Counted from the stretch's first letter, positions 11,074 through 61,790 are shown. The stretch is DNA of 64,000 nt from a bacterium (GCA_963674965.2 CAXXFL010000004.1:320001-384000), one strand, 5' to 3'. Notes: generated by a model not told the origin, from the sequence alone. Made by a program: numbers and translations.

Positions 11074-11964
11074 TTTGATTGCCAAAATCCCAGCGCCTTT
11101 ATTAACGGCTTCTAATGACAAGATAAATTCCTTTTCATCCCCTTTCAGTCCCTGATCAATTTTTACTAAACCCTTTACTTTTTTACTAGTTACAACCCGT
11201 TTAACTATGAAAACATTTCATAAACATGCTTTTCGGGCGTTCTTCTCGCCCACTATGGCAATACCGACTAATAGCAAACCTGCAAAGCAATGTCAAGAAA
11301 AAAACCATATTATGTTAATGAAATTTAATTTTCTCTTTTATTACGGCCATTTATTTTTTAATAAAAAGAAAGTTCAAAAATTGGCGCCAAAATTAATTAA
11401 GGGGCAAGGTCCAAAAAAACCATGCCAACAAATATGCAAATATTTCATAGGGTAAGCGAACACCTTTAGATGCGGGCGCTGAATATCGGTTCAATTTTCT
11501 AACCCCTTTGCGGCATATAATTTAACGCTAGGTAAAATATTTTAAAAACTACCCTATCTGTCCATTAAGATTGAATATTATCCTTACCCCATCCAGCCGA
11601 CCATAATACTTCGTTAATACCGGGCTAATACTTCTTTAATAATCCCTTTTATCAAACATATCGCGCCAACTCTTTTTTTTATGAATTTATGGTCAAGAGG
11701 CAAAGCATGGCGAAAAAATACCTTCAATCCCTGTTTTTTCCCTCCAACGGGCGCCAGCCAATCCATTTTCCATCCCCCACTCCTGGTGACGAGGCCCCAG
11801 GCCTTGGCCAAGGTCCGGGAAAAAAACCGCATCCGGTCAATTTTTCAGCGGTATCTTTATTGAAAATGGCTTGGTACTGTGATAGTAATAAAAGCGTGCC
11901 AATGGTTGGGAATAAAAGCGGCTTCCCTTTACCGCGCGATGGCCGCTCGCAAGGAGGATAATTA

Positions 11965-16899: not shown

Positions 16900-16923
16900 G
16901 ACGCCGGCCTATCTCTCCGATCT

Positions 16924-44063: not shown

Positions 44064-46613
44064 TCATATCCGGCCGTGTGAGGTCCGGGCGATAATGTCG
44101 TCCTGCACTGGTTTTCCCAGGTCCACGAAATAGGCGCTGTATCCCGAGACCCTTACCACCAGGTCCTTGTAGTCCTCCGGGTTTCGCTGGGCCGCTCGCA
44201 GGACCTCGTCGGAGACCACGTTGAACTGCACCTGCATGCCGCCCTGCTTGAAGTAGGCCAGGACCATGGCCGCTATTTTCTTCACCCCGCCGGGGGTCGA
44301 GAGCAACGTGGGCAGGAGCCTGATATTGGTCGAGCTTCCGTTGGGGATGAGCTCATGGTTCAGCTTGGCCGCGCTTTGCAGGGCGGCGACGGGCCCCTTT
44401 TGCTCGGCCTGGTTGGTGGGTGAGATGCTGTTCGAGATGGGCTCGCCCGCCTTGCGCCCGTCGGGGGTCGCGCAAAGGACCGTGCCCTCGAAAACGTGCA
44501 TGCCGTAGCTGAAGAAGCTGGGCCGGAATATCCCGCCGCGCCGGGGCTTGTGCTTCATGACCTCGCGGCAGAAATGCTCGGCGATTTCGCGGGCGATCGC
44601 GTCCGCCTCATCGTCGTCGTTGCCGTACTTGGGCGCGCGCGTTTTAAGGCGGCCCCGCAGGGTCTCCTCTCCCCGGAAGTTCTTGTCCAGGGCCTTGAGG
44701 AGGTCGGCCATCTTGAGGGACTTATCCTCATAGACCAGCTTCCTGATCGCTACCAGGGAGTCGGCCGCCGTGGCCAGACCCCGCCCCGAGATGGAGTTGA
44801 AGTTATAGCGGGCGCCGCCCCGGGTCATGTCCTTTCCGCTGTCGATGCACCCGTCCAGGGTGATGGAAACCAGCGGGTTGGGCAAAAGCTCCTCGAAGGC
44901 CTGGTCCTTGAGGTTGGTGGCCCGGGCGATAAAATCCACGCAGAAGCTTATCTGCTTTTTATAGGCGTCCATGAACTCCTCGAAGGTCTTGAAGCCGCGG
45001 GGGTCTCCGGTCCGGGGTCCGAAGCGTCTTCCCAGCATGACCAGCCTTCCGTCGCGCAGGGTCATCTCGAGGGCGCCCACCAGTGAGACGTCGTTCCCGG
45101 AGGTGCAGCCGAAGGTGTTGCCGTCGGAGGTCGGCTCGACGCAGCCGATGATGGCGTAGTCGCGGGCCTCATCAAGGGGATAGCCCGACCCGGCCAGGGC
45201 CGGCACGATGGCCTCGTCGTTGAAGATGGCCGGACCGTTCGAGCGCCCGTGCATGGCGATGATCTTCTCCACGTAGTCGCCGGGGGATTTCTCGCTGATC
45301 CGGAAGGACACGGAGTTGGACATGTGGCGCACGTTCTCGGTGGCCCGAATGAAAAGATAGCTGAGCGGATTGGTCGCGTCCTCTCCGTCCCGGCCCACGC
45401 CGCCGATGGTGACGGCCATGTTGTCGGCGCCCAGTTCGCTTCCCGTTTCCTTGCCGTAGGGCGGAAGCACGAGGAGGTTATAGCTGAGCTTGACGATCAA
45501 CTCCTCGAGAAGCTCGAGGGCGTCCTCCTCGCTTATCCGGCCGGCGGCAAGGTCGGACTCATAAAAGGGACAAAGGTACTGGTCCACCCTGCCCAGGGCG
45601 AATATGCCCACGATGCCGTGAGAGATAAGGGCCAGGGTCTGGGTCATCCATACCCACTGCAGGGCCTCGCGAAAGTCGCGGGGAGGAAGCCAGGGCACGC
45701 GCCGGCACCTCTCGGCTATGGCCATAAGCTCTTCCCTTCGCTTGCCGTCTCTTGCCTCCTTGGCCTTGGACTCGGCCAGGTCGGCGTAGCGTCCGGCAAA
45801 GTCGCGAGCCGCGTCGCAGCAAATAATCACCGACTCGAGAAAGGCCCTTGCCTCGGGGTCGCCGCCCGCCTCGAGGAGTTTCTTCTCCGCCCGGACCTTG
45901 GCCCCCTGGAAGCCCTCCTTGATCAGATATTTGTGGCCCAACACGAGGTGCCCCTGCATGTCGAACACGTTCATGCAAAGGCCGGGGTTGTTGAGCGGTA
46001 TCTCCGATCCGGCCATGGCCGCCACCTTGGGGTTGGCCCGGGCGTAGGACGCCTGCTTGAGGAGAGGGGCCAGGCCGAAGCTTTTCACCCTTTTGTAAAA
46101 GGCCGAGGGCGAAGTATTTAAGGGGACGAAAAGGCCCTCGTCTTTCCACAGCTCTTTCTTTCTATGCCGTATGCTCTTGTCCTTCCAATAGGGGATGATG
46201 TCGCCAAGGAGTTCCTTTTTCTCGTCGGGGCTTATTTTAAAGGGCCGGTCCTTGCGACTTAAAAGATAAGGAAGCTCCATCTCGAGCACCAGGTTGATGT
46301 CGCCCCTCTCGATGGGAATGACCGTGGCCACCAGCTTCGAGCTGCGGTTGCCCACGATGGCCTCCTCATCCAGGATGTAGACGGTGCAGTTCTTCAGGGT
46401 ATGGGCAAAGGCCTTGGCCGCCCGCAAGTCGGGGGCCTCGCCCTCGGTCTGGCGATAGCTCTGGGTGTAGTACCGGGCCCTTTCGACGCATATCTCGTAT
46501 GGAGCGTCCAGGATCCTTAGCCGGAGCCTCGCGGTCCTGGACTCCTCTGAAGAGGACGGCTGGACGGGGGCTGGGGAGGGGCCCGCCGAGTAGTCGGAAA
46601 CTGGCTGAGTCAT
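44064..46613 (-). CDS. Glycyl radical enzyme (PFL-like superfamily), function unknown
   Basis: Cys loop IIGCVEP; Gly loop LVVRVSGYSAYF; GRVDQYL; PKYGNDD. Confidence 0.93.
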   Translation of the reverse strand: MTQPVSDYSAGPSPAPVQPSSSEESRTARLRLRILDAPYEICVERARYYTQSYRQTEGEAPDLRAAKAFAHTLKNCTVYILDEEAIVGNRSSKLVATVIPIERGDINLVLEMELPYLLSRKDRPFKISPDEKKELLGDIIPYWKDKSIRHRKKELWKDEGLFVPLNTSPSAFYKRVKSFGLAPLLKQASYARANPKVAAMAGSEIPLNNPGLCMNVFDMQGHLVLGHKYLIKEGFQGAKVRAEKKLLEAGGDPEARAFLESVIICCDAARDFAGRYADLAESKAKEARDGKRREELMAIAERCRRVPWLPPRDFREALQWVWMTQTLALISHGIVGIFALGRVDQYLCPFYESDLAAGRISEEDALELLEELIVKLSYNLLVLPPYGKETGSELGADNMAVTIGGVGRDGEDATNPLSYLFIRATENVRHMSNSVSFRISEKSPGDYVEKIIAMHGRSNGPAIFNDEAIVPALAGSGYPLDEARDYAIIGCVEPTSDGNTFGCTSGNDVSLVGALEMTLRDGRLVMLGRRFGPRTGDPRGFKTFEEFMDAYKKQISFCVDFIARATNLKDQAFEELLPNPLVSITLDGCIDSGKDMTRGGARYNFNSISGRGLATAADSLVAIRKLVYEDKSLKMADLLKALDKNFRGEETLRGRLKTRAPKYGNDDDEADAIAREIAEHFCREVMKHKPRRGGIFRPSFFSYGMHVFEGTVLCATPDGRKAGEPISNSISPTNQAEQKGPVAALQSAAKLNHELIPNGSSTNIRLLPTLLSTPGGVKKIAAMVLAYFKQGGMQVQFNVVSDEVLRAAQRNPEDYKDLVVRVSGYSAYFVDLGKPVQDDIIARTSHGRI

Positions 46614-47917: not shown

Positions 47918-48273
47918 AACTTGCCTCCTAAATGGATTGTTTTCTCCGGCGATCAAAGCAGACGTCCCCACTCGTCGCCGCCTTTAAAACCATATGATCG
48001 CTAACGGGTAAACAATATTTGCCTGTTCCCCGCTGTCGCCCATATCGAGCTATAGTTTATCCGTTCGGCTAAAATGGAGCATTCTGAAACGCGAGTCATT
48101 CCCGGAATGTCAAACTCGCCGACCTGCTCGCTATGCTCGCCCATATAGCGGAGCTATATGGGTTACTTATAATTCAAGACCCGTCTGTGAGTTACCTGTT
48201 GGCCCATGCATTTTCACAAAATGCACGGTTGTAGCCGCAGGCTGAGTATTGCTGTTTACTAAATCAAGCACGG

Positions 48274-48335
48274 TTTTTTAGCTCCTCCCCTTGAAAAAGG
48301 CCTTTCGATACGATTGGCGTCAGAAGCGTTCAGCC
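48274..48335. repeat. ~62-bp dispersed repeat, copy 1 (copy 2 at 58554-58616)
   Basis: TTTTTAGCTCCTCCCCTTGAAAAAGGCC..ATACGATTGGCGTCAG..CGTTCAGCC. Confidence 0.9.
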
Positions 48336-48342
48336 TATCCGC

Positions 48343-48951
48343 TTACCTATGAATATTTTTTACCATTATATTTTGCTTGGCCTCAGAGATAATGCCGTAT
48401 ACTTTCCTTACGTCTCTTACAGACTCGAGACATTGAACGGATGGGCCGCGATTACCCCAAAACATCTTTGCAATATGGCCTCTGCTGGAGTGGGCCAATA
48501 AAGATGAATCCGTTGCCAGCGTTATGGTCCCGCTTCCGTCGCTGTTTTCAGTGACTTCAACCATTTGGGTAGTGGCCAGAGGTAATAATTTCGATTTGCT
48601 TTTTATAAATTGGGAAATGAAGACAATCCTGTCCGAAGTCACCGCGTATATCGTGTTTTTTCTTTTGTACGAGTCAAGTAAGAATCTTCCGAAAGCAAAG
48701 TATAGCCCCGCTAATAATATGGAGAGTAAAAACGATAAAGGAAATACCATTGTTGCGAATTTCTCATGGCCTCGGGAGATAACTATATAACAAAATAGGC
48801 ATGCCCCGCATGATAAAATGAATCCAAGGGGAACCATGAATAGGTCAAGAGGCGTCGTCTTAAATCCTTTTTTGGGGGAATCATGCCAGAGAATATTTTC
48901 CTCCGGCGATAAAACACCTTCAATATTTTCAACGCTTGGATGCTTCATCAA
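48343..48951 (-). CDS. 2-TM + bacterial PH-like protein, candidate immunity (paralog of 49000-49593)
   Basis: L.PEE.ILW..P, two TM helices, TIYAVTSDRI, DGSGTI; low GC. Confidence 0.7.
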   Translation of the reverse strand: MMKHPSVENIEGVLSPEENILWHDSPKKGFKTTPLDLFMVPLGFILSCGACLFCYIVISRGHEKFATMVFPLSFLLSILLAGLYFAFGRFLLDSYKRKNTIYAVTSDRIVFISQFIKSKSKLLPLATTQMVEVTENSDGSGTITLATDSSLLAHSSRGHIAKMFWGNRGPSVQCLESVRDVRKVYGIISEAKQNIMVKNIHR

Positions 48952-48999
48952 CCATTCTCCTGATAATCGATTAAAGACATCGCGGTCGTCGCGCGCCTT

Positions 49000-49593
49000 C
49001 TAGATGACGATTCTTTTGTTCTTCTTGGCTTCATCGATAATATTATATACTTTTCTCACGTCATCGATAAATTCAAAACTTGGGACAAAGGGACCGGAGT
49101 TCAAAGATGTCCAAACCGCCATTTTGTGCCTGTTAAAGTAGGATGATAAATACGTTTTTGCTCCGAACAGAATGGTCCCGCTTCCGTCTTTCTTCTCCGA
49201 GATACCGACCACGCCAAGAGTAGCTATGCTTAACGAAAACAATTTTAATTTCGTTATCTTAGAAAGAAAGATAATTCTATTTGTAGTTACGGCATAAATT
49301 GTTTTATTCCTTTTATATGAGTCAATGAAGAATCTTCCGAATGAGAGGTATAATCCGATTGAAAATATAGGAATATTAAAAATAAAGGCAAATAAAGACG
49401 CCCAGAAATCTCCGGGGCTAGTGAAAATATCAACATAAAAAAAGAATGGTACTGAAAAGAAAGCAATGCCAAAAGGAAAATTAATTACATCAAACGGCCT
49501 CATCATTAACTTAATATCAGGATAGCCGTGCCAGAGTATCTTTTCCTCTGGTAGCAGAATATTTTCAATGTCTTTTTTGCTTAATGGCCTCAT
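49000..49593 (-). CDS. 2-TM + bacterial PH-like protein, candidate cognate immunity of RHS fragment 4
   Basis: Same motifs as the paralog; starts 18 nt after the toxin stop; low GC. Confidence 0.7.
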   Translation of the reverse strand: MRPLSKKDIENILLPEEKILWHGYPDIKLMMRPFDVINFPFGIAFFSVPFFFYVDIFTSPGDFWASLFAFIFNIPIFSIGLYLSFGRFFIDSYKRNKTIYAVTTNRIIFLSKITKLKLFSLSIATLGVVGISEKKDGSGTILFGAKTYLSSYFNRHKMAVWTSLNSGPFVPSFEFIDDVRKVYNIIDEAKKNKRIVI

Positions 49594-49611
49594 CGAGCAA
49601 TCTCCCGAGTT

Positions 49612-52000
49612 TCAGAAAAATGAAATTGGAACAGGCTCCGAGAAACCATATCCAATATAATTCCCACCACCAACGCCAAAACCAGCTGTTGGTTCAACGC
49701 TAAAAGGAGGTGTTTTACCTTCGCAAACATAATCTAATGAATTTGCAGGAATATTAAAATCAATATCATATCCATATCCATCATGCATTTCCCTTCCAAC
49801 TATAAATCCTGTCCCTGAATAATCCTCTTGAGTACCAAATCCAAGAAGTAAGCCTCCATTTAAATCAGCTCCAACCTGAGGACCCAAAGTACCATATCCT
49901 TGAACTAATAAAAATGGTTTAAAATTAGTAAAATCTATGCATAAATGTAATGATATTTCAGCTCCGATAATTAGACTTGCGCCAATTTCTGCTCCAAATC
50001 CAATAACAATAAGACCATATGGATCATTATAATTTATTGGGGAATTGACTACATATATATATTTATTGTTATATGTATTCACTATTGCTAATAAACCTGG
50101 CCACTTATCCTCCTGGGTAAATCGTCTTTGCTCGGGGCTGTAGTAGCGGGAGCGGTAGAACATGAGGCCGGTTTCGTCGTCATACTCTCTTCCTGTGTAG
50201 CCGTAGGGGGACTGGAGGGAGTAGGGGTTGTAGGTGGAGGTTTGGGCTCCGAAGGGGGAGTATTCGGAGCGCATGAAGACGGCGCCGTTGGACTCGAACT
50301 CGGTGAGGGAGCCGAGACCGTCGGTGAGGGGGAAGGCGGCACCCCCGGCGGAGTCCATCCCCTGGAGGAGGTCGTCGACGCCCGGGCCGTGGACGTAACG
50401 ATTCACCACCGTCGCCCCGTCGAACGACTGCACCACGTCCTCGCCGTCGTAAAAATAAATCGTCTCCTCCGTCCCAAGGTCCTTCAGCACCCGCCGCCCA
50501 AGCGCGTCGTAGACATACTCCACCACCGTGGTCGAGCCTTCCTTGACCTCCACCAGCATATCGTCGGCGTCATAATAATAATCACGAGCCTCCACCGTCG
50601 TGGTACCGTTAATCACGTCCCGGGAGGACATGGCGCCGGCGTCATCGTACTCGTACCGGACCACGTAATCCGCCGCCTCCGACGTGTTCCCGTCCGCGTC
50701 CATGTCATACCAGATCGCCTCCAGCCGGTTCATGCCGTACGCGTCGTAAAAGTACGTCTCCTCCTCCAGGTCGAAACCGCCGTCAACCTCGGTCACGGAC
50801 AGGATATTCCCCAGGGTATCATACTCGTACTCCAGCGTCGAGCCGTCCCAAGTCCCCGCCCTCGAAAGCCGATAAAACGAATCGTACTCGTACTCGACCC
50901 GCACCGACGAACCGCTCAAGGTCCGTACCTGCGCCGTTCGCTGCCCCTTGGCGTTGGCGCCCGAGTCGTATTCGTACTGATACCTCGACAGCGTGGTACT
51001 CCCGTCCTTGTGATGGATGTCCGTCAATCTCCCCTGCTCGTCGTAACCGTATTCCGTCGCCGACGACGCCGTCACCCCGTCCGCCCGGTACCGCGTAACC
51101 TTGCTCCGCATGCCCTGCTCATCGTACTCGTACTCCGCCACCGTCGTGCCGTTCCTGCTCACCGTTTGCAAAGACCCGTCGTCGTAATACCCGTACTCGA
51201 CCGTCTCCCCGTCCGCCGTCGCCATCCTCGTCACCCGGTCCCCGGCGTCATACTCATAATACACGGTCTCCCCGACCGTCGACCCGCAAGCCGCGTCCGC
51301 GCAAACCGTCTGCTCGACCGACGAAACCCGAAAGTACTCGTCATACTCGTAATCCAGCGCCGTGCCCCCAACCTTGTCGTCCTTGACGTAATCGATCCGC
51401 CCGCCAATATACCCCACCTCGATCGTCCTCAGAAGCGACCCCTTGTTCGCGCAGCTCGAACCGGCCCAATACTTCCTCTTCCAAGGCCGGTTCATGCCGT
51501 CGTATTCATAAGACACAACCGAGTTGCCCGCGTTCACCACGCACGTCACCCGTCCGATCTCATCGTAAGTATAGCTCGCCGTCGGGTCCCCCGCGCTCGC
51601 GTCCTCCCGGATCACCTTGTCCATCCGCCCGAAGTCGTCGTACGTGTACAGCGTCTCCAGCGCCGCGCCGGCCGGTTCCGCCGTGAAGCCGACCAGGTTG
51701 CCGACGCCGTCGTAGTCGAAGGTGGTGATGGACGCCGCGCTTCCGATCTCGACCTCGGCCAACCGCCCCCTGGCGTCGGACAGGTACTTCGCGTCCCTGC
51801 CGTTCACGTCGTTGACCGTCACCAGCGTCGCCGTGGCCGTGGTCCCGCCGATGGCCTCGGTCCCGTAGGTCACGCCGGTGTTGAAGCTCACGCCGTCCAC
51901 CTCGGGCAAAGTCACCTCGGTCATCCTGCCGATATCGTCCCAGGTGGCCTGCACTTTCCTGTGCGTGTCGCCGTTTAGCATGACGGACGCGGGCAGACCC
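49612..52000 (-). pseudogene. RHS fragment 4: 5'-truncated YD-repeat core + Gly-rich hydrophobic toxin tip
   Basis: YD repeats, YTGREYDDETGLMFYRSRYY, PINYNDPYG; begins mid-core at an arm-like motif. Confidence 0.88.
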
Positions 52001-52022
52001 AAAAAGTAACTATCTCCCCTTT
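52001..52022 (-). repeat. Solo junction arm (divergent)
   Basis: AAAGGGGAGATAGTTACTTTTT, 4 nt after the 52027 stop and abutting RHS fragment 4. Confidence 0.5.
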
Positions 52023-52026
52023 CCGT

Positions 52027-52401
52027 TCAGTCAATTGGCGGTTTGAACTCGAACTCTTTTTTGCCGACGGGAATTAACTGGAGATCGCCGAATTCAATGG
52101 TTAAGAAATGTTCGCAATCATCCGGCGTCCAAATTTCGGCACGATATCCATTATCCAATAATGTCACTTTAATATCAGTAATCCAATCCCAACTCTGTCT
52201 ATCTTTCATAATGATTTCATATGAGGTGACTTCCTGAAAAAGTAATATTCCAGGCTCCGGTATATATCCTTCAGCGTATTCCCAGTCGAAGTTGACGTTC
52301 TTGAGATGAAGAGCAATCGATTTTTCTTGTTTGTCAATGATGGTTTTCAGTATTCTTCCATCATGAAAACAGCCATAATCCTTTATAATTTCAATTCCCA
52401 T
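52027..52401 (-). CDS. Candidate immunity protein (FHD motif, Imm50-like)
   Basis: Directly downstream of RHS fragment 3; CFHDGRI; acidic; low GC. Confidence 0.6.
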   Translation of the reverse strand: MGIEIIKDYGCFHDGRILKTIIDKQEKSIALHLKNVNFDWEYAEGYIPEPGILLFQEVTSYEIIMKDRQSWDWITDIKVTLLDNGYRAEIWTPDDCEHFLTIEFGDLQLIPVGKKEFEFKPPID

Positions 52402-52477
52402 CTAAGTCCTCCCATTAATTGTCGAGAAAACATCTGAAGTAACTAAAACATTCTGACTTACTATAGAATCCTCACTT

Positions 52478-54062
52478 TTAATAAACGAAAACGAACGATG
52501 GTGAAGGGGATACCATGAACGCTGATGAACCACCTAACATATAGGGACTTATCATTGGGGAAAATAATAGCTGGGGAGTCGCTGGATTTCCAAATTGATC
52601 TACTCCATATATTTCTTTTAATGCCCATTCCCTATCCATGCGTTCTTTTTCTCTATTTGAGAGTGCTTCATTCCACGAGCAAGCCAATCTATTGAGCGTC
52701 GATGGGGGTGACAAATCAACTTCATCTCCAGGGCGGAGATGGTCGTCTCCGTCATTAAAATGCCAATGATCCTTTCCACCAGGTGCTTTCGGGCCTTTAT
52801 CAGGATTTGCAGGATGGTAATCAAGATAGTCATTAGTGTATGCGTTTCTGTATCTCATGCCGTTCGGATGTTTATGGGTCCAATCGGTTCTCCATTCAGG
52901 TCCCAAACCATTCGGGCCACTGGGCAATCTCATTCTGGTGAGACCAAACGCATCGGTGAACTGGGCGGGGGAATTGTCAACGTAACTGTATTTGTTCGCA
53001 TAAGTAATTGGAAGCACCAAAATCCCGGCAAATTTATCCTCCTGCACGAATCGTCTTTGTTCGGGGCTGTAGTAGCGGGAGCGGTAGAACATGAGGCCGG
53101 TTTCGTCGTCGTGTTCGCGGCCGGTGAAGCCGTAGGGGGACTGGAGGGAGTAGGGGTTGTAGGTGGAGGTTTGGGCGCCGAAGGGGGAGTATTGGAAGCG
53201 CATGAAGACGGCGCCGTTGGACTCGAACTCGGTGAGGGAGCCGAGACCGTCGGTTAACGGGAAGGCGGACCCGCCGGAGTTTTCGCCCTGGAGGACGTCG
53301 TCGACGCCCGGGCCGTGCACGCAGCGGCCTACCACCGTCGCCCCGTCGAACGTCTGCACGATGTCCTCGCCGTCGTAGAAGTATATGGTCTCGTCCGTCC
53401 CCAAGTCCTTCAGCACCCGCCTCCCAAGCGCGTCGTAAACATACTCCACCACCGTGGTCGCGCCTTCCTTGACCTCCACCAGCATATCGTCGGCGTCATA
53501 ATAATAATCCCGAGCCTCCACCGTCGTGGTCCCGTTAATCACGTCCCGGGCCGACATGGACCCCGCGTCGTTATAATCGTACCTCACCACGTAATCCGCC
53601 GGCTCCGACGTGTCCCCGTCAGCGTCCATGTCGTACCAGATCGCCTCCAGCCGGTTCATCCCGTAACTATCGTAAAAGTATGTCTCCTTCTCCAGGTCGA
53701 AGCCACCGTCAACCTCGGTCACGGACAGAATATTCCCCAGGGTATCATACTCGTACTCCAGCGTCGAGCCGTCCCACGTGCCCGCCCTCGAAAGCCGATA
53801 AAACGAATCGTACTCGTAGTCGACACGCACCGACGAGCCGCTCAAGGTCCGCACCTGCGCCGTCCTTTGCCCCTTGGCGTTGGCGCCCGAGTCGTATTCG
53901 TACTGATACCTCGACAGCGTGGTACTCCCGTCCTTGTGATGGATGTCCGTCAATCTCCCCTGCTCGTCGTAACCGTATTCCGTCGCCGACGACGCCGTCA
54001 CCCCGTCCGACCGGTACCGCGTTACCTTGCTCCGCGCGCCCTGCTCATCGTACTCGTACTCC
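52478..54062 (-). pseudogene. RHS fragment 3 + His-rich toxin tip (Ntox37-like)
   Basis: Core nearly identical to the other fragments; PAQFTDAFG; LDYHPANPDKGPKAPGGKDHWH..HLRPGDE; RHS identity ends at 54062. Confidence 0.85.
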
Positions 54063-54069
54063 TTGACTT

Positions 54070-54094
54070 TACTTATCATGGATGTCACCAGATC
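54070..54094 (-). repeat. Solo junction arm
   Basis: GATCTGGTGACATCCATGATAAGT, 1 nt after the 54096 stop; compare GATATGGGGACATCCATACTTAATT at 61609. Confidence 0.7.
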
Positions 54095-54095
54095 A

Positions 54096-54329
54096 CTAAC
54101 GCGCTTCTAATTCAGCAATTTGCCAATAATATGTGCAGCCTTTCTCAGAATTTAGCGTATTCAATCTATTCACTTCTAATTTGGCTCTTTCTAATGTTCG
54201 TACAAGCTTTTTAATTGTAAAATAAGTTCGCATGCCAGGCTTATGATCATAGTGATCTACTCGTACTATTGCATATACCTGATTCGCTGAAGTTTTATCC
54301 GTTGTATTCATGATGCTATCCTCATTCAT
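54096..54329 (-). CDS. Small candidate immunity protein (paralog of 54480-54695)
   Basis: VYAIVR..TLERAKLEVNRLN..YYWQ. Confidence 0.65.
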   Translation of the reverse strand: MNEDSIMNTTDKTSANQVYAIVRVDHYDHKPGMRTYFTIKKLVRTLERAKLEVNRLNTLNSEKGCTYYWQIAELEAR

Positions 54330-54479
54330 TATTCAGCATACTTGGGTAAAAGCGTTAGCCTCATATAAAGTCCAACAATCGTGATTATAAATCCGCTATA
54401 TTTACAGGCCGGATATCACGTTCTCTCACATTTGCACATACTGTCGAGATTATCTGCATTTCTCGCACTAAATTAATAC

Positions 54480-54695
54480 TCACCGCTCTTCCAGTCGAGT
54501 ATATCCCCAATAGTAATTACTGCCGTTTTCTGGATTAGTAGCGTTCAACCGCTCAACTTCAGACTCGGCTCTTTCCATAGTCCATACAATTTTTTCTATT
54601 GCAAGTTTCATCATAAATTCCCCATCGATTGATAAATGAACAATCCGCATTACCGCATATACCGGTTCAACCGGCCTACGATTCTTTTCTTTCAT
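54480..54695 (-). CDS. Small candidate immunity protein
   Basis: VYAVMR..TMERAESEVERLN..YYWG. Confidence 0.65.
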   Translation of the reverse strand: MKEKNRRPVEPVYAVMRIVHLSIDGEFMMKLAIEKIVWTMERAESEVERLNATNPENGSNYYWGYTRLEER

Positions 54696-54802
54696 AAATA
54701 ATTCCTATCATTTTTGCTCAATCCCTGTAAAACCAATAAGCCAATCAATTTTTCCCGGTGAAATGAGGGCTTCGATTTATATTAGCGTTCAACTTGCTCT
54801 TG

Positions 54803-54925
54803 CTAATCCCATGATGAGTCAGTCATGGTGCCCAGAAACTTACGTGTAACCGGATCATGCACGCCACCGCTATGATCGAACAGTACATTATCTGAAGGAC
54901 CACGGCCCCAGTACTTCTTAATATG
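54803..54925 (-). pseudogene. Probable 40-codon toxin C-terminal remnant
   Basis: Hand translation HIKKYWGRGPSDNVLFDHSGGVHDPVTRKFLGTMTDSSWD*; no start codon; begins at the first base outside the arm. Confidence 0.5.
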
Positions 54926-55063
54926 AGATCTGGGGACAGCATACTTATCTCGCCTTTATTTACGGCTAGAGAGGTGTTTATAAATATTCCATCAATATTC
55001 ATCGTCGAAGAACCCAGGTGATTCGGAATGTGTCAAGCAAAATGAGACACGCCTTTCCTGAAT

Positions 55064-56080
55064 TTAGTGTGGCAAACTGTTTGTTTCCTCCGGTTTCTCC
55101 GGTGGGTTGATCCACGCTTTGCCGGGCAACTCCGGCGCCGTCGGCGGTCTTTTCACGAAGCGCTCCGGGTTTTTTTCATAGGCGTGGTCGAGCGTTTTTT
55201 GCCGGGCGGCCACGATCTCGCTCGCCATTCCGTAATGGACCATCTCGGGCGTCATCAGGCCGATCCCGGTGTGCCGATGCTCGCGGTTGTACCAATCGAA
55301 AAACTTCACGCAAAAGGCCCTGGCGTCCTCGATGGAGCCGAACCGGCTCGGGAACTCGGGCCGGTACTTCATGGTCTTGAACTGGCTTTCCGAGTAGGGG
55401 TTGTCGTCGGACACGTGGGGCCGCGAGTGGCTCTTGGTCACGCCCAGGTCGGCCATCAAGAAGGCCACCGGCTTTGATTTCATCGAACTCCCCCGGTCGG
55501 CGTGGATTGTGAGTTGTCCCGGCTCGATCTCCTGTTTTCGGATGCTGTCCCCGATCAGGCGGCGGGCCAGCTCGGCGCTCTCGCGGCGGGCGATCATCCA
55601 GCCCACCACGCAGCGGCTGAAGATATCCATGATCACGTAGAGCTGGTAGCAGGTCCATTTGGCCGGTCCCTTGAGCTTGGTGACGTCCCAGGACCAGACC
55701 TGGTTGGGGGCCTCGGCCAGCAACTCGGGTTTTTTGTATCGGGGATGCCGAAGCTGGTTGCGCCGCTCCCTGACTTCCTTTTCCGAGTCGAGGACGCGGT
55801 ACATGGTGCGGACCGAGCACAGCCATGTCCCCTCGTCCAGGAGCGTTGCCCAGACCTCGCGGGGGGCCTTGTCGGCAAAGCGCTCGGAGTGGAGTCCGTC
55901 CAGCACCCGGCGCCGCTCGTCCTCGCTCAACGACCTTGCCGGCTTGGCCGCGCGCCTCGGCGGCGGAGGCCCGAAGGGAATTTTAGCGCGGCGGTCAAAC
56001 GTTGCCCGCGACAGGCCCAGGGCCTCGCAGGCGGCCTTGACGCCGACCCGGGGAGCGGCCGTGCTTGCCGATTCCATCAT
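55064..56080 (-). CDS. IS3-family transposase OrfB (DDE integrase core)
   Basis: PNQVWSWDVT, IMDIFSR, IHADRGS, DNPYSESQFKT, YNREHRH. Confidence 0.95.
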   Translation of the reverse strand: MMESASTAAPRVGVKAACEALGLSRATFDRRAKIPFGPPPPRRAAKPARSLSEDERRRVLDGLHSERFADKAPREVWATLLDEGTWLCSVRTMYRVLDSEKEVRERRNQLRHPRYKKPELLAEAPNQVWSWDVTKLKGPAKWTCYQLYVIMDIFSRCVVGWMIARRESAELARRLIGDSIRKQEIEPGQLTIHADRGSSMKSKPVAFLMADLGVTKSHSRPHVSDDNPYSESQFKTMKYRPEFPSRFGSIEDARAFCVKFFDWYNREHRHTGIGLMTPEMVHYGMASEIVAARQKTLDHAYEKNPERFVKRPPTAPELPGKAWINPPEKPEETNSLPH

Positions 56081-56616
56081 TCGCTCTCTTCGCCGGGCGG
56101 CTTGGCCAGGGGTATCCCCAGCAGATCGGCAACTTTTTTTTGGAAGTCGATTATCATCTCGGCCTGTTCGAGCCGCTTTTGGAGCTTCCGGTTCTCGCGC
56201 TCGAGGCGGGCCACTTCATCGGCCAGCGGGTTTTTGGCCTTGGGCTTGCGGCCCCGCTTTACGGGCGAAAGCGCTTTCAAGGCCCCCTCGTCCCGCTGCT
56301 TGCGCCAGGCCGTCAGGTGCGACGAATAAAGGCCCTCCCGGCGCAGCAGGGCGCCGACCTCGCCATGCCCCGAGCAGGCGTCGGCCTTCCCGAGGATTGC
56401 GAGCTTGTAAGCCGCGGTGAAGCGCCGCCGGGCGGGCTTTTCCGGGACCTCCGGGTCGGGAAGAATGATCGGCGCCCCTCCCCGCTCGGGCCGCTTGGCC
56501 GGAGTGTCCTCCGGCTCGGCCGTCCCGGTTGGGGAGACTCCGGTCGCCCTACGGGCTCCCTCCGTCTCCCCAACAATCCCTGCCTTCTTCCTGTCTTCAT
56601 CCATCTCTCTATACAT
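56077..56616 (-). CDS. IS3-family OrfA (HTH + coiled coil)
   Basis: RRRFTAAYKLAIL, LLRREGLYSSHLTAWR; A8G slippery site at 56133-56141. Confidence 0.9.
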   Translation of the reverse strand: MYREMDEDRKKAGIVGETEGARRATGVSPTGTAEPEDTPAKRPERGGAPIILPDPEVPEKPARRRFTAAYKLAILGKADACSGHGEVGALLRREGLYSSHLTAWRKQRDEGALKALSPVKRGRKPKAKNPLADEVARLERENRKLQKRLEQAEMIIDFQKKVADLLGIPLAKPPGEESE

Positions 56617-56723
56617 CCTAATACCTCCCCCGCCCTACAGTAATTTAACATAGGGGAAGTGTCTCATCTACGTTGGCACAGAGGGATTTTCATAAATTAA
56701 GTACTCTGTCCCCAGAACTCCCA

Positions 56724-57647
56724 TCAACGGTCGTCATATTTATTGAGCAATTCCAATATCTCAAGTTCACCACGATTCTTCGCAATGTCAAAAGCATTGT
56801 TACCTTTGTCGTTGCGGATTGTCGGGTCGGCGCCGTTCTCCAATAGTATTTTCACCATTTCGATGTGTCCCCAGAAAATGGCACGATTAAGCGGCGTATC
56901 TCTTTTAGAAGTTAGGGCATCAATTTCAGCTCCTTTTGATATTAGATATTTGGCCACTCCAGCTTTGCCATAGGAAGCAGCATGGTGTAAAGCCGTGTAT
57001 CTTGAAGAGCTGTTGCAAAAGTGTATGTCGGCGTTATGTTTTATCTGATCAGCAATTCTTTTTCTTTCAAAAAATCTATCCGCGATCTCTGGAGAAATTG
57101 TATTTCCAAGAACAATATCATACACTCCATTGTCGTTTAAGTTGAGATAGTAATCTATCAGTTCCCTATTATCATTGCGAACGGCATCCGCTAATGGATG
57201 ATGTCCTCCTAAGTTATGAATATCAGCGCCATAAGTAAGAAGTAGATTTATCATTTTTGTGTCACAAGCTGTTGCATAATTTATCGGACTTTCAAATTGG
57301 GCGCAAACATCGGGATTTGCACCACTTTTCAATAATTTTTCAGCTTCTTTATAATTGCATGCAATTACAGCTTTATGCAGGGGCGATAAGGGAGTGGGAA
57401 TTATATCAGAACCCTCTATTTCTTTTAACGACTCATTCTCACATGTACGATATTTTTGTTGAACTCTTGCTTCGTACAAAGGGCTCTCAGGACTGATACG
57501 CATGTGGTTTTTATAATTTTTTAAAAATGTGCTTGCGGAGAAAAATATAATGATAATAAATACCATGAAAACAACTGAAATAATGGCCAGGGTTTTGCCC
57601 CGATGCATCCAAAAACTTGTTTTTGAAGTTGTATTTAGGTTGTTCAT
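56724..57647 (-). CDS. Membrane-anchored ankyrin-repeat protein, candidate immunity
   Basis: N-terminal TM; SPLHKAV, TALHHAA, TPLNRAI; starts 1 nt after the toxin stop. Confidence 0.85.
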   Translation of the reverse strand: MNNLNTTSKTSFWMHRGKTLAIISVVFMVFIIIIFFSASTFLKNYKNHMRISPESPLYEARVQQKYRTCENESLKEIEGSDIIPTPLSPLHKAVIACNYKEAEKLLKSGANPDVCAQFESPINYATACDTKMINLLLTYGADIHNLGGHHPLADAVRNDNRELIDYYLNLNDNGVYDIVLGNTISPEIADRFFERKRIADQIKHNADIHFCNSSSRYTALHHAASYGKAGVAKYLISKGAEIDALTSKRDTPLNRAIFWGHIEMVKILLENGADPTIRNDKGNNAFDIAKNRGELEILELLNKYDDR

Positions 57648-57648
57648 A

Positions 57649-58548
57649 TCACTTGAATCCTAAATCATAGCAGGCTTGGCAGTAATCGCTACATGCTTCG
57701 GCACAGTCAGTTGTTTGAGGGTCTAGTCCTGCTTGAACTCCCTTCCGATTTGCCAAGATATCTCCTGCGCATTCTTCTGGTTGTGTATCAAGATATCTAT
57801 ACTCTTGTAGATATCCATACACTTCTGATCCTAACACCCCCGTAACTCCATACTTTTGTGTAACTTCACAGTGAGCATTACAATGAGCATATTCATCCCA
57901 ATTCATCCCACCCTGTTTTTTCAGTTCATCCTCAAAGTATGTTATTAATGGACCTCTTTTATTTCCTCTATTTGCTTTTCGCTCTTTCGCTAAATCCCGC
58001 TTAAAATTGCGTTTAGCACGCCAAAAATGTAGCGGGATTAATACCGCAAAATCAAGTAGAGCTAAAGGGGCCTCTGTAAATGGATTATGTCTTCGTTCAC
58101 CTTCCGGGTCAATATAAATTATTGGATTATTATAGACGTAAAGATATTTATCCACATAGGTAGCAGGGTCACTGATTTCTCCCCTCCACTTATCCTCCTG
58201 CACAAACCTCCGCTGCTCGGGGCTGTAGTAGCGGGAGCGGTAGAACATGAGGCCGGTTACGTCGTCGTGCTCGCGGCCGGTGTAGCCGTAGGGGGACTGG
58301 AGGGAGTAGGGGTTGTAGGTGGAGGTTTGGGCGCCGAAGGGGGAGTATTCGGAGCGCATGAAGACGGCGCCGTTGGACTCGAACTCGGTGAGGGAGCCGA
58401 GACCGTCGGTGAGGGGGAAGCCGGCGCCCCCGGCGGAGTCCATCCCCTGGAGGAGGTCGTCGACGCCGGGGCCGTGGACGTAGCGGTTCACCACCGTGGC
58501 CCCGTCGAACGTCTGCACGATATCCTCGCCGTCGTAAAAATAAAGCAT
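57649..58548 (-). pseudogene. RHS fragment 2 + toxin tip with HC..C / D..AN..G motif
   Basis: Last ~150 aa of core, PIIYIDPEG, DEYAHCNAHC..GDILANRKG. Confidence 0.85.
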
Positions 58549-58553
58549 TGATT

Positions 58554-58672
58554 GTTTTTAGCTCCTCCACTTGAAAAAGGGCCGTTCAATACGATTGGCG
58601 TCAGGAACGTTCAGCCCGCGGCTTCGCCGCCCACGCAATATTGAAGACAATATTGCGTGGGCCACCCCGCAG
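58554..58672. repeat. 62-bp repeat copy 2 fused to a REP-like hairpin
   Basis: Matches 48274-48335; followed by CCCACGCAATATTG-AAGA-CAATATTGCGTGGG, a perfect 14-bp stem. Confidence 0.9.
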
Positions 58673-58707
58673 ATTGTCCTCTCAATGAACTGGTAGAACA
58701 CTGCCAG

Positions 58708-59289
58708 TCACAAAACGGATAGCCTCTTCAGATCGTAAATATCAATTTGTTTTTCCACAAAGATATCTTCTAAAGCATCCGGCCCATTTTTTTCAGCAAA
58801 ATCAATTTCCTTTTCAGAAATAGGAACCGCTAATAACCACGCTACAGTCTTTTTTTCAAAGTACATTGTTTTCAATGTATCTTCCCATAAAAATGGAGGG
58901 ACGAATAAAAAATGCTTCATTGTTGGGGACAAGTTATACATTTTAAGTACGTCCGGGAAAATAGCCCCCGGGTAACAAGGCCATTTTGAGTTAATAATGC
59001 AAAATGCTGCCGTCCCTAGCGCAAGATCAAAGTCCGTGAATTCCGAGTAGCAAGCTCCCACAATTTCAAGTCGTGTTGGATACTCTAAGCCTTGCATGAT
59101 AAGCGGCGAGTCAGACAATCCGATCGTTGAATAAGACGACACGCCTTTTTCCGGATGATTAGGGCAAGTTAGTATGTCGACAAAATTCTCCTCCGCATCA
59201 TCCAGATGCCGACGTACTGTTGATTCCCTCCCGAAAGCTTGTACTAATGCCCTAGTGATTTCTAAGTTCTCTTCGGAAATGGCGCGCAT
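58708..59289 (-). CDS. Suppressor-of-fused (SuFu) domain immunity protein
   Basis: YSTIGLSD, RLEIV, PG.IF, HFLFVPPFLW, VAWLLAVPISEKE, G.DALE. Confidence 0.9.
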   Translation of the reverse strand: MRAISEENLEITRALVQAFGRESTVRRHLDDAEENFVDILTCPNHPEKGVSSYSTIGLSDSPLIMQGLEYPTRLEIVGACYSEFTDFDLALGTAAFCIINSKWPCYPGAIFPDVLKMYNLSPTMKHFLFVPPFLWEDTLKTMYFEKKTVAWLLAVPISEKEIDFAEKNGPDALEDIFVEKQIDIYDLKRLSVL

Positions 59290-59291
59290 AG

Positions 59292-59351
59292 TTATCCCCC
59301 CTGATGTGGTCTGTTATGGAATTTCGCTTCTATGATTACGGTTTGAACTTG
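59292..59351 (-). pseudogene. 19-codon remnant of an HNH/EndoVII-type nuclease toxin tip
   Basis: QVQTVIIEAKFHNRPHQGG*; stop 2 nt before the SuFu ATG; starts against the E2 arm. Confidence 0.6.
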
Positions 59352-59352
59352 T

Positions 59353-59481
59353 AGATCTGGGGACAGCATACTTATCTCGCCTTTATTGACGGCTAGAGAG
59401 ACGTTTATGAATATTCCATCAATATTCATCGTCGAAGAACCCAGTTGATTTTCAAAAATTAAGTACACTGTCCCCAGAACT
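59353..59481. mobile_element. 129-bp inverted-repeat mini-element E2 (intact)
   Basis: AGATCTGGGGACAGCATACTTA ... TAAGTACACTGTCCCCAGAACT; internal palindrome ATGAATATT-N5-AATATTCAT. Confidence 0.9.
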
Positions 59482-59520
59482 CAATATAGGTGATCTAAAT
59501 TCTCCCATTAGGCCTGACCC

Positions 59521-60114
59521 TCACTTCTTCCTGTTAGTAAATTTGGGATCATCTACATTTAATGAAGGTCCGGATATGCGATAATCATCCTGCAAATGAT
59601 AAATATCCCCCTTTTCATCAACCATCCAGATATCTAATCCACTATCCGCGTCTAAATTTGCCACCGCATATGCATTCCATTTGTCAACTTCCCTGACGCA
59701 TTTATAATAAGATGGTAAAGACTCCTTTAGATTCCATACGCTTGGCATTAAAGTATCATTGTAGAAAATTGTATATCTCCCTTTGTTTGTAATATACCCC
59801 ATGTCAGCAAAATTTACAGCGAAATATCCCTTTTCTTTTCTATAAATCAGTTGCTTAGAATGAACTGAACGCAATTCACGTTGCGCCTCAAGACCATTTC
59901 CTCGATAGTTGAAAGCCTTGTAATTATCAATGTTGAGTGCAAACAGAAAAGTTGCAAGAATTATTAATAGGTAGGATAGCGTCAATTGAAAAATTGTCAT
60001 GCTATACTTCCTGTTAATACTTTTTATCCATATCATCAAATCTTTCATGCCATACCTTTTACTTTCTAATGTTCTATTAACTCGGTTTATTAGGGATATG
60101 CCGGCTAATCCCAC
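59521..60114 (-). CDS. Type IV pilin-like protein in the immunity position (true start may be 60048)
   Basis: RKYS|MTIFQL-TM..EAQRELRSVHSKQLIYRKEKGYF..RY..AVANLDAD..DIW. Confidence 0.6.
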   Translation of the reverse strand: MGLAGISLINRVNRTLESKRYGMKDLMIWIKSINRKYSMTIFQLTLSYLLIILATFLFALNIDNYKAFNYRGNGLEAQRELRSVHSKQLIYRKEKGYFAVNFADMGYITNKGRYTIFYNDTLMPSVWNLKESLPSYYKCVREVDKWNAYAVANLDADSGLDIWMVDEKGDIYHLQDDYRISGPSLNVDDPKFTNRKK

Positions 60115-61605
60115 GGCTTACCTGTTAGGAATAGAGGGCCGAGCTTCCACCATGGGTCAAGTGAAAAAGATGTTCCATCGTCAAAGTTAACGTATGTGCG
60201 ATCATGAGATCCACCTGAATAACCAGGCACTTGGTGTGCATTAATCGTGACGTCATCAGGGAAATATCCCCAATTATTCATGAAATCAGCAAGGTCCTGT
60301 GAGTACACACTGCACTGAAAATCATCATCGATCCCGCCATCACACTTGCCCCCAAAAGCGCAGTCAACGACCACAAAGTAATTTAAAGGCCCGCTGAACA
60401 CTAAGCCATTTAGAGCTTTTAGTGGTGGAGGCACATCTGATGTCAACATCGATCTAAAGAAGTTGTTTGCAGGACCCCACATCCAATAGCGTGGGCTAGT
60501 AATTGACCATATTTGCATTAAAGCAACGGATTCAGCAGCAACCCATACTTTATCCTTAGCAGCCCATGCTTTATCCTTCAAATTCATTAAATATTTAATA
60601 TCTCGCCATATATAATCATTCGGGTTAAACTGATATTCTCTTCTTCCTGTTGGGTCAATTAGATTGACTGGATTATTGTCAACATATTTGTATTTGTTAA
60701 CGTAGGTTCCAGGATCATTAACTTCTCCCCTCCACTTATCCTCCTGTACAAACCTCCGCTGCTCGGGGCTGTAGTAGCGGGAGCGGTAGAACATGAGGCC
60801 GGTTTCGTCGTCGTGCTCGCGGCCGGTGAAGCCGTAGCCGCCCAGGCCGATGGAGTTGGGATCGTAGGTGATGGTTTGGTCGCCGAAGGGGGAGTATTCG
60901 GAGCGCATGGTGAGGGAGCCGTTGGCTTCGAGTTCCGTGAGGGAACCGAGCCCGTCGGTCAGGGGGAAGGCCGACCCGCCGGAGCCGACGTCCTGGAGCA
61001 CGTCATCTATCCCCGGCCCGTGCACGTAGCGGCCTACCACCGTCGCCCCGTCGAACGACTGCACGATATCCTCGCCGTCGTAAAAATAAATCTCCTCGTC
61101 CGTCCCCAAGTCCTTCAGCACCCGCCGCCCCAAAGCGTCGTAGACATACTCCGCCACCGTGGTCGCGCCTTCCTTGACCTCCACCAGCATATCGTCGGCG
61201 TCATAATAATAATCCCACGCCTCCACCGTCGTGGTCCCGTTAATCACGTCCCGGGAGGACATGGCGCCCGCGTCGTTATAATCGTACCGCACCACGTAAT
61301 CCGCCGCCTCCGACGTGTCCCCGTCAGCGTCCATGTCGTACCAGATCGCCTCCAAGCGGTTCATGCCGTAACCGTCGTAAAAGTATGTCTCCTTCTCCAG
61401 GTCGAAGCCACCGTCAACCTCGGTCACGGACAGAATATTCCCCAGGGTATCATACTCGTACTCCAGCGTCGAGCCGTCCCAAGTCCCCGCCCTCGACAGC
61501 CGATAAAACGAATCGTACTCGTACTCGACCCGCACCGACGAACCGCTCAAGGTCCGCACCTGCGCGGTTCGCTGCCCCTTGGCGTTGGCGCCCGAGTCGT
61601 ATTCG
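60105..61605 (-). pseudogene. RHS fragment 1 + papain/transglutaminase-like toxin tip
   Basis: RHS identity starts at 61605 (EYDSGANAKG); PVNLIDPTG; FQCSVYS..GSHDR..SLDPWW. Confidence 0.85.
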
Positions 61606-61607
61606 GA

Positions 61608-61790
61608 AGATATGGGGACATCCATACTTAATTCGCTGTTTGGCAAATTATCTCCTCCGAGTGCCCGGGATAATATTTCGTTTCCCGCTTGTATTAAGCT
61701 ATTCAAAAACCGGCCTCTATAACTATCATTGTCGATATTGACGTGATATACCGGAAACGTCCAATAATTTAGTATCATATCCCCAGATCC
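61608..61790. mobile_element. ~183-bp inverted-repeat mini-element E1 (different interior)
   Basis: AGATATGGGGACATCCATACTTAATT ... AATTTAGTATCATATCCCCAGATC. Confidence 0.8.

Follow-up and report, generated by a model that had tools for sequence, protein, structure and literature searches.

The toxin/immunity array

The present analysis concerns an array of Rhs toxin and immunity gene fragments in a bacterial genome and the conserved repeat arms that lie at several of its junctions. The array is situated in the window, i.e. the whole stretch of 64,000 nucleotides (nt) that was analysed (contig C4:320001-384000; positions without contig name are counted from its first letter). The genome comprises 6.5 Mb with 58% GC in 7 contigs and looks like that of a sulfate reducer by its gene content, which includes DsrC, class III cytochrome c and NrfD. 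A preliminary description of this DNA had taken the arms for the boundary sites of a new system, in which a trans-acting enzyme captures or shuffles toxin 3'-ends together with immunity genes in an integron-like way. In all likelihood, however, the arms are the termini of REPIN-like elements (REPIN, REP doublet forming a hairpin; REP, repetitive extragenic palindromic sequence) linked to a REP-associated tyrosine transposase (RAYT), which have accumulated in a decaying Rhs toxin/immunity array, and no new gene-capture system is involved.

The array runs on the minus strand from about 61.8 to 48.3 kb. It comprises the following genes and gene fragments, given in the direction of transcription (ORF, open reading frame):

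60105..61604, minus strand: RHS fragment A, cut at about residue 344, with core end and unknown C-terminal tip (Pfam RHS_repeat, NCBIfam Rhs_assc_core, tblastn)
59521..60114, minus strand: immunity candidate A, 197 aa, overlapping the RHS-A stop by 10 nt (ORF list)
59292..59351, minus strand: toxin 3'-end remnant of 20 codons, translating to ..FHNRPHQGG*, directly abutting an arm of element E2
58708..59289, minus strand: SUFU-family immunity gene, 193 aa (Pfam SUFU, E 3.3e-27)
57649..58548, minus strand: RHS fragment B, 299 aa, starting at about RHS residue 512 (NCBIfam Rhs_assc_core, tblastn)
56724..57647, minus strand: ankyrin-repeat immunity candidate (Ank), 307 aa, with its stop 4 nt from an arm of element E3 (Pfam Ank families)
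54096..54925, minus strand: low-GC stretch with the small ORFs 54823-55002, 54480-54695 and 54096-54329
52478..54060, minus strand: RHS fragment C, 5'-truncated at about residue 286 (Pfam, NCBIfam, tblastn)
52027..52401, minus strand: immunity candidate C, 124 aa, without family (Pfam, NCBIfam)
49612..52002, minus strand: RHS fragment D, 796 aa, the longest of its RHS family in the genome, yet not full length
49000-49593 and 48343-48951, minus strand: immunity candidates D, paralogous tandem ORFs of 197 and 202 aa after RHS fragment D

All four 5'-truncated RHS fragments match RHS_repeat and/or Rhs_assc_core (Pfam, NCBIfam); each has a Rhs-associated core end, their C-terminal tips differ, and small low-GC ORFs follow downstream, among them the SUFU-family and ankyrin-repeat immunity candidates. 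RHS breakpoints are numbered on fragment D as 796-aa reference, and the limits of homology were taken from tblastn. A full-length rhs gene of this RHS family was not found in the assembly by tblastn, the longest piece having 796 aa, and the gene upstream of the array head encodes a glycosyltransferase. Hence, the array is headless and consists of orphans only.

For immunity candidate A, neither a Pfam family above the cut-off nor a NCBIfam match was obtained. The 20-codon remnant before the SUFU gene is, judged from its sequence, probably the tail of a GH-E nuclease. A metagenome scan with the SUFU protein matched 3 loci, and at one of them (L063) a distance of 15 nt separates the end of a GH-E-domain RHS toxin from a SUFU homologue, which is 58% identical to that of the window; the tail of this toxin reads ..NRSHRGED.. 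when translated by eye from the DNA. No arms were seen by eye at these SUFU loci in the last ~1 kb of L063. The low-GC stretch 54096..54925 may hold a toxin remnant and orphan immunity genes; its three ORFs gave no match to Pfam, and the two scanned against NCBIfam (54480-54695 and 54096-54329) gave none there. The tandem ORFs after fragment D have a 107-nt direct repeat between them (D13, 71% identity), and their weak NCBIfam matches are PuhB-like and score far under the cut-off; the two ORFs may represent duplicated membrane immunity genes.

The conserved arm and the elements that it terminates

The arm is an inverted terminus of about 26 nt with the consensus AGATCTGGGGACAGCATACTTAAT. As proposed in the preliminary description, the genome was scanned with a position weight matrix (PWM), here a 26-nt matrix built from 48 arms elsewhere in the genome, from which the four window arms of E2 and E3 with at most 2 mismatches had been excluded. 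The scan returned 62 sites of at least 16 bits compared to 1 in a reversed-genome null, and the window arms of E2 and E3 reach 38.8-43.9 bits. The left arm of E1 (61608) scores 21.2 bits with E 4.8e-6 (nhmmer). Its right arm is weak when taken alone (PWM 21.0 bits, nhmmer E 0.2); it is nevertheless backed by two further copies, C1:1464932-1465092 and C6:75963-76114, to which E1 shows 88% identity over 153-163 nt. An extra base marks the subfamily of the solo arm at 54061-54094, GGGGACATCCAT; this arm is accepted as real because it matches C6:487149-487182 at 33 of 34 nt. Hence, seven of the eight arms claimed at first are real, whereas the supposed divergent solo arm at 52001-52022 was rejected: it found only itself in blastn-short, stayed below 8 bits by PWM and was not reported by nhmmer at E<=100. 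Short motifs occur in the window near chance level (13 matches of GGGGACA with 10.5 expected, 10 matches of TACTTAATT at up to 1 mismatch with 5.4 expected); the arm signal resides in the full arm of about 26 nt and not in such motifs. The arms of the window belong to the following elements:

61608..61790, no strand assigned: E1, 183-bp diverged E1-type REPIN-like element with inverted arms, 88% identical to two other copies of ~180 bp
59353..59481, no strand assigned: E2, intact 129-bp REPIN-like element beginning 39 nt past the immunity A stop, arms of 43.9 and 41.6 bits
54926..56719, no strand assigned: E3, E2-type element in two parts, 54926-55023 and 56685-56719, split by an insertion sequence (IS) of the IS3 family at 55024-56684
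54061..54094, minus strand: solo arm of 34 nt, 1 nt away from the stop at 54096 on its outer side and leading directly into RHS fragment C on its inner side

Two element types are thus represented, the 129-bp E2 type and the diverged E1 type of ~181-183 bp. The pairing of the arms as inverted repeats in E1, E2 and E3 was confirmed, but E3 turned out to be a single E2-type element interrupted by an insertion. The identity to E2 is 95% for the left 98 nt of E3 and 94% for its right 36 nt. Between these two parts lies an IS3-family element (55024-56684) that is 1661 bp long and accompanied by a 3-bp duplication, ATT; E3 is therefore one element struck by an IS. This IS carries orfA (56077-56616) and orfB (55064-56080) on the minus strand and matches rve, HTH_Tnp_1 and transpos_IS3 (Pfam/NCBIfam); it is present in the genome as 24 full copies that share their ends, are 98.3-100% identical and have 3-bp target duplications. 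An alternative in which E3 is an IS3 element with the arms as its own ends was discarded, since the IS ends lie inside the E2-type element and the 24 copies recur without arms.

Copies of these elements are found at many other places. E2 is 98% identical to copies at C4:239440 and C7:185287, and beyond the window array 10 E2-type copies are full-length or nearly so, 5 of them at 94-98% identity to E2; three further diverged copies show 73-76% identity. Because E2 is closer to distant copies (98%) than to the neighbouring E3 (94%), E2 and E3 are independent insertions. As single-stranded DNA, E2 folds at -24.4 and -26.3 kcal/mol (z -6.2 and -6.3), a stability reached by 0 of 200 shuffles, and forms a single long hairpin through pairing of arm with arm. 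Within the E2 type, the internal stretch TTTATGAATATTCCATCAATATTCA, with a small hairpin GAATATT/AATATTC, is nearly constant even in copies of 73-80% identity. The solo arm is the remnant of such an element. Since it runs into RHS coding sequence and the remaining element is gone, a deletion must have ended inside the element. Partial tandem arm copies occur at many element ends and internally deleted RAYT units exist, e.g. at C6:73914-74264, which points to the element ends as sites of breakage and rejoining. ERIC elements (enterobacterial repetitive intergenic consensus) and Tn3-type ends were also considered for the identity of the arms; neither seems to match.

A transposase gene bracketed by the arms

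The annotation of ORFs around all arm loci revealed that an inverted arm pair at C7:625997 and 626739 brackets the one intact RAYT-type Y1 HUH transposase gene of the genome (C7:626039-626716). The preliminary description had mentioned that similar arms flank RAYT or IS200-like Y1 HUH genes and had suggested a search for arm-flanked ORFs with Y1_Tnp hidden Markov models; both were borne out by this gene. At the corresponding locus L015, the arms lie at 5998-6015 (plus strand) and 6723-6740 (minus strand) around the gene at 6040-6720. The gene is located on a different contig from the array, about 2 Mb-scale away. Its product of 226 aa matches Pfam Y1_Tnp (PF01797) with E 8.9e-12 and 45.6 bits at a cut-off of 23, and aligns with NCBIfam REP_Tyr_transpos (REP-associated tyrosine transposase) over 2-146 of 146 positions. 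The HUH motif is present as HVH and the tyrosine lies within RYVEMNPVRAG, and the best solved relative is TnpA-REP of E. coli (4er8; E 8.6e-7, 31.8 bits). The terminal ~24 nt are common to the RAYT flanks, the E2 type and the E1 type, while the interiors differ. Several broken RAYT copies likewise keep their arms.

Distribution of the arms in the genome and at the junctions of the array

The 62 arms form 38 clusters at 22 loci, 20 of which lie away from RHS DNA. At these, the neighbouring genes are unrelated and encode, for example, DsrC/HNH, GyrB (gyrB), a helicase-PLD protein with a PADLOC match (MkoA-like), lectin proteins, IS110 or IS630, or are unassigned low-GC ORFs. An RHS match was absent from the other clusters of 6-7 arms (C3:20-22.6k, C4:239-240k, C6:72-76k, C7:510-518k) as well as from the 4-arm cluster at C1:628k. 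Of the two RHS-linked loci, one is the window array and the other, C2:1176-1304, duplicates its Ank junction at a distance of 7.7 kb from a second array. More than half of the arms (37/62) lie outside the ORFs of a crude map with ~91% coverage of the genome, and 26 of the 38 clusters lie beside low-GC DNA, compared to 19.6% of random positions. In two clusters, IS110-family transposase genes were observed 60-140 nt from arms (L007 6642-7658 and L014 9675-10694).

Within the window array, supported arms are present at 4 of the 7 junctions. There they meet truncations of the RHS sequence at about residue 344 (E1) and 286 (solo arm), the 20-codon tail (E2) and an unassigned remnant (E3). One arm of E1 lies 3 nt from the 5'-truncated RHS fragment A, and the outer arm faces the glycosyltransferase gene across a gap of 156 nt. 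The start of RHS fragments at arms, noted at first sight, agrees with the tblastn homology, which ends at 61604 and 54073, the solo arm itself ending at 54061. Likewise, the distances of 4 nt (56724), 1 nt (54096) and 39 nt (59521) between arms and immunity gene stops agree with the ORF list. Genome-wide, arms do not hug stop codons: on the crude ORF map, arms lie within 10 nt of a stop only at the Ank junction, at its duplicate and at a dubious 91-aa ORF between two tandem elements, while elsewhere the distance is 14 nt upward. A tyrosine recombinase, which the preliminary description had proposed to look for, could not be found in the window, since none of the 12 Phage_integrase matches of the genome lies there (the nearest on contig C4 is at 115778); moreover, the 21 ORFs scanned between 44 and 64 kb contain no site-specific recombinase domain.

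The ORFs 60105-61778, 59292-59468, 54823-55002 and 52478-54088 have their starts within elements and run in frame into toxin remnants; the RHS-A ORF (60105-61778) begins within E1 and the RHS-C ORF (52478-54088) within the solo arm. E1 (183 nt, 61 codons) is free of stops in the RHS-A frame, whereas each of the six frames is interrupted by stops in the two other E1-type copies. In the E2 type, one frame is open in 8 of 12 copies; among shuffled sequences, 12% (E1) and 28% (E2) contain at least one open frame. These open frames could be due to chance, or to selection for translational coupling of the immunity genes.

The second array and the leader repeat

A second orphan array of the same RHS family, at C2:9002-17363, allows a comparison within the genome. 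None of its four fragment 5' ends carries an arm; one start abuts a different inverted-repeat element (fragment at ~9090) and three lie behind a leader repeat of about 60-120 nt that contains a hairpin, a ribosome-binding site and an ATG. The same leader represents a second, arm-free type of junction in the window:

58549..58670, minus strand: leader repeat, with a perfect hairpin at 58630-58663, then GGAGGAG, then the ATG of RHS fragment B
48275..48336, minus strand: leader remnant at the distal end of the window array

This is the different repeat beside which the sixth toxin fragment had been correctly described to begin. On C2 (L005) the leader copies lie at ~11618-11738, 13664-13785 and 16917-17001, so that five junctions or remnants in both arrays use it. 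All four fragments behind a leader start at RHS residue ~512, a breakpoint that they have in common without arms. The preliminary description had looked to related strains for the same toxin breakpoints without arms as a sign against its proposal; in part, this applies within the genome itself. RHS modules headed by a leader may be translated on their own.

The duplicate of the Ank junction lies within C2 (L005) 1-3611, where the last ~265 bp of the Ank gene are repeated together with an intact E2-type element that is 99-100% identical to the halves of E3. An IS3 copy cuts this duplicate on one side; on the other side follow 156 nt of unique sequence and then an IS present at 5 places in the genome, and the homology to the window ends exactly at the outer end of the arm. 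Contig C2 begins inside a copy of the 1661-bp IS3-family element of the window. Another inverted-repeat element (..GGGCGAGCATAGCGAGCAGGTCG..) was noticed at window 48106-48166, at the distal end of the array, and also at C2 8905-9085, where it is the element that borders the first RHS fragment (~9090).

Occurrence in other organisms

Inverted repeats with a GGGGACA or GGGACA core flank the gene at 5 of 6 RAYT orthologue loci checked (G003, G007, G011, G040 and G009; not G033); these RAYTs have 66-42% identity, and their flanking repeats vary beyond the core. An exact 19-mer of the arm was found at 19 loci in 18 metagenome-assembled genomes (MAGs) labelled Desulfobacterota, Alphaproteobacteria, Planctomycetes, Spirochaetes and others (L044-L062). 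At 3 of these 19 loci a full RAYT homologue with 49-62% identity to that of the window genome lies right beside the 19-mer, and none of the 70 ORFs within 1.5 kb of it carries an RHS domain. One of the loci, L055, has tandem arm copies with 5 exact 19-mers, or 6 if up to 2 mismatches are allowed. A search of 5 related genomes with RHS fragment D (796 aa) gave only weak matches, of 35-46% identity, in 2 of them. Two sequencing runs of one sample contain the region as short assembled contigs, none of which spans the stretch, and two joints seen in these contigs have sides of 20-23 nt inside repeats and are thus uninformative on excision or reordering.

Comparison with known systems

Arrays of orphan Rhs toxin and immunity genes have reportedly been treated by Jackson et al. 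in 2009 and by Koskiniemi et al. in 2014. Such arrays resemble the window array in that rhs core fragments, truncated at the 5' end, follow each other in tandem, each with a variable tip and followed by a small immunity gene; the window array differs by lacking a full-length rhs head and by the truncation of several fragments at ends of mobile elements. Integron attC cassettes and the recombinase-associated orphan-immunity (rAID) arrays of Bacteroidales also consist of promoterless modules with repeats between them. In contrast to these, the window array has no adjacent tyrosine recombinase, and its repeats are missing at most junctions and recur at numerous loci unrelated to it. A precedent for deletions at repeats comes from Neisseria, where recombination between REP clusters is said to have deleted porA (van der Ende, 1999).

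REPIN-RAYT systems have been described by hairpin doublets of extragenic repeats, REPINs of 89 bp and a RAYT flanked by the repeat (Bertels & Rainey 2011, PMC3337134). The elements described here agree with this in several respects: inverted repeats with a spacer between them give a hairpin and also border a short Y1 HUH gene with HUH and tyrosine motifs, the repeats are extragenic, over-represented and non-coding, and solo repeats are decaying remnants. They depart from it by their lengths of 129 and 183 bp instead of 89 bp, by spacers that are conserved here and unique there, by copy numbers in the tens instead of hundreds, by arms that are not palindromic on their own and by several broken RAYT copies (PMC3337134). 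In addition, the arms carry GTAT where the tag of many REPs is GTAG (PMC3733652). Taken together, the non-palindromic arms, conserved spacers, length, copy number and broken RAYTs make the family look more like an IS with miniature inverted-repeat transposable elements (MITEs), and RAYT groups with low counts of flanking 16-mers and possible horizontal transfer have been described (PMC5581495). The HUH and Tyr-NPV motifs align with those of TnpA-REP of E. coli (4er8; Messing et al. 2012, PMC3479197). However, this match is remote, the protein described here has a C-terminal extension of ~80 residues, and the repeats are unrelated in sequence. The Correia repeat-enclosed elements near type VI secretion system and effector loci of Neisseria interrupt genes and act as substrates for recombination that removes adjacent DNA (PMC10210955). 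They are likewise small inverted-repeat elements at the edges of toxin or secretion loci, but they form an unrelated family without RAYT link, and a role in deletion is inferred for the elements of the window. Our search of article texts found no paper containing the 13-mer GGGGACAGCATAC of the arm, none linking REPINs to Rhs orphan arrays, and none in which Rhs, orphan, immunity and 'miniature inverted-repeat' occur together. A paper that covers RAYT, REPIN and rhs deals with each on its own, and one that mentions orphan Rhs genes along with REP sequences is about Correia elements.

Origin of the arms at toxin junctions

Collectively, direct observations cover the identity of the arms and their RAYT link, the presence of arms at scattered, unrelated loci, the splitting of E3 by an IS3 element and the independent origin of E2 and E3, and the arms are termini of compact, non-autonomous REPIN-like elements and not sites that bound cassettes. 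By analogy to the established model of RAYT and IS200-IS605 transposition, the RAYT would recognise and cut single-stranded DNA at the arms and move the doublets in trans. Mobile elements have accumulated in the dispensable low-GC array, namely three REPIN-like elements, one solo arm, one IS3 and, at its end, one other inverted-repeat element. We infer that the toxin truncations at arms arose by deletions beside an element or by recombination between elements, and that selection preserved the immunity genes on the other side of these deletions.

Integron-like capture, in which the RAYT as trans-acting enzyme would take the arms of neighbouring elements as cassette boundaries and excise, insert and shuffle the modules between them, is very improbable. 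It could explain why 4 of the 7 junctions in the window array have an arm placed between the stop of an immunity gene and a truncated toxin, and why arms are enriched there; a cognate Y1 transposase exists in the genome, and the Ank tail recurs with its element at C2:910-1304 with different sequence beyond the outer arm end. However, the arms belong to tight doublets of 129 or 183 bp, copies of which are 94-98% identical and not specific for cassettes. An arm-bounded cassette was not found at a second place, the C2 duplicate being bounded by IS copies, and the C2 array has no arm at its 4 fragment starts, five junctions or remnants showing the leader repeat instead. Furthermore, 20 of 22 arm loci in this genome and all 19 loci in other organisms have no link to RHS, and no recombinase lies beside the array. 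An opposite possibility is that the elements are bystanders: the truncations would have existed before, made by incoming RHS tips that displaced older ones, and the elements would later have inserted into tolerated or targeted intergenic gaps. This view gains from the generally extragenic position of the arm family, its clustering in low-GC accessory DNA, the junctions without arms in the same arrays and the independent insertion of E2 and E3. Nevertheless it is unlikely, because the solo arm enters RHS coding sequence, which needs a deletion with one end inside the element, because the 20-codon toxin tail beside E2 would be an odd end point for a core-mediated exchange, and because four independent insertions exactly at truncation points are improbable without a targeting rule.

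A different question is the nature of the family itself. It is possible, although less likely than not, that it represents an IS-like, horizontally spreading Y1 transposon with MITE derivatives rather than a domesticated REPIN-RAYT pair. One intact RAYT unit stands beside broken copies at six loci, each retaining arms, the spacers are conserved between copies, the copy number is low (62 arms), and an identical 19-mer occurs in MAGs labelled as distant phyla. Compared to a classical MITE, which has terminal inverted repeats and a target-site duplication and derives from an autonomous element, the family has inverted repeats in common with the RAYT unit, of which the internally deleted derivative mentioned above exists, and no target-site duplication is visible at the 11 copies inspected. 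Conversely, the gene aligns end to end with the REP-associated model, and the RAYTs beside the identical 19-mer are only 49-62% identical, which argues for an old, constrained pairing of protein and DNA and not for a recent transfer.

Several findings weigh against our preferred reading of RAYT-linked REPIN-like elements in a decaying array, the invisible target-site duplication included. Regarding the RAYT, the protein scores 73.9 bits on NCBIfam REP_Tyr_transpos, under the cut-off of 80, and of the 14 further RAYT matches in the genome, 13 are fragments of broken copies at the six loci and one is distant (26% identity, C7:508305), in contrast to classical RAYTs, which are single-copy genes. 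The arms that flank the RAYT fold alone at only -1.1 and -3.8 kcal/mol (z 0.36 and -1.61) and are not palindromes, and E1 folds no better than shuffles (z -0.99). None of the 40 other genomes searched contained E2 DNA, and there is no close relative among them for an empty-site comparison. All 29 unassigned low-GC ORFs beside arms lack a NCBIfam or PADLOC match, and Pfam gave nothing for them at E 1e-4 (first batch) or 1e-5 (second batch); some of these ORFs might conceivably be orphan immunity genes. Finally, the array itself is still enriched in arms. It has 4 PWM clusters, which represent 3 elements because E3 is counted twice, the solo arm being outside the PWM set, while 0.13 clusters would be expected under uniform placement or 0.45 in low-GC neighbourhoods (P ~1e-3 in a post hoc test). 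An arm lies exactly at the toxin truncation at four junctions, and two arms lie 4 nt and 1 nt past a stop. Such coincidences would not be predicted by passive insertion alone. A more active role, in which RAYT cleavage at arms or recombination between elements repeatedly deletes the 5' parts of toxins, spares the flanking immunity genes and thus sculpts immunity-only arrays, is doubtful and we consider it rather improbable. The same low credence applies to its corollary that elements in places supply an in-frame start, which would keep the remnant translated and the immunity gene coupled. In a bolder form, two neighbouring elements would move the module between them, for which we see hardly any chance.

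With the preferred reading, the candidate for a new system is removed, because the conserved arm terminates a RAYT-linked mobile element and is no recombination site of cassettes; the window shows a further RAYT-linked mobile element of known kind in a decaying toxin array. The family is of interest in its own right, since a RAYT-repeat family in a sulfate-reducer-like genome, with an end of ~19 nt that is identical across labelled phyla and transposases of 49-62% identity, is a clean case for RAYT-DNA recognition. If deletions associated with elements prove true, they would be one concrete way for toxin arrays to degenerate into arrays of orphan immunity genes. The second, arm-free junction type carries its own ribosome-binding site and start codon.

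Other features of the region

A scan of 47-64 kb with Rfam at E<=1 gave no match. Between 51.9 and 62 kb, 19 promoter-like sites were counted compared to 12.6 +/- 4.1 in shuffles, and 5 terminator-like sites compared to 10.7, with nothing peculiar to the elements. Just past the array, a gene at 44064-46613 encodes an 849-aa glycyl-radical enzyme of the pyruvate formate-lyase type.

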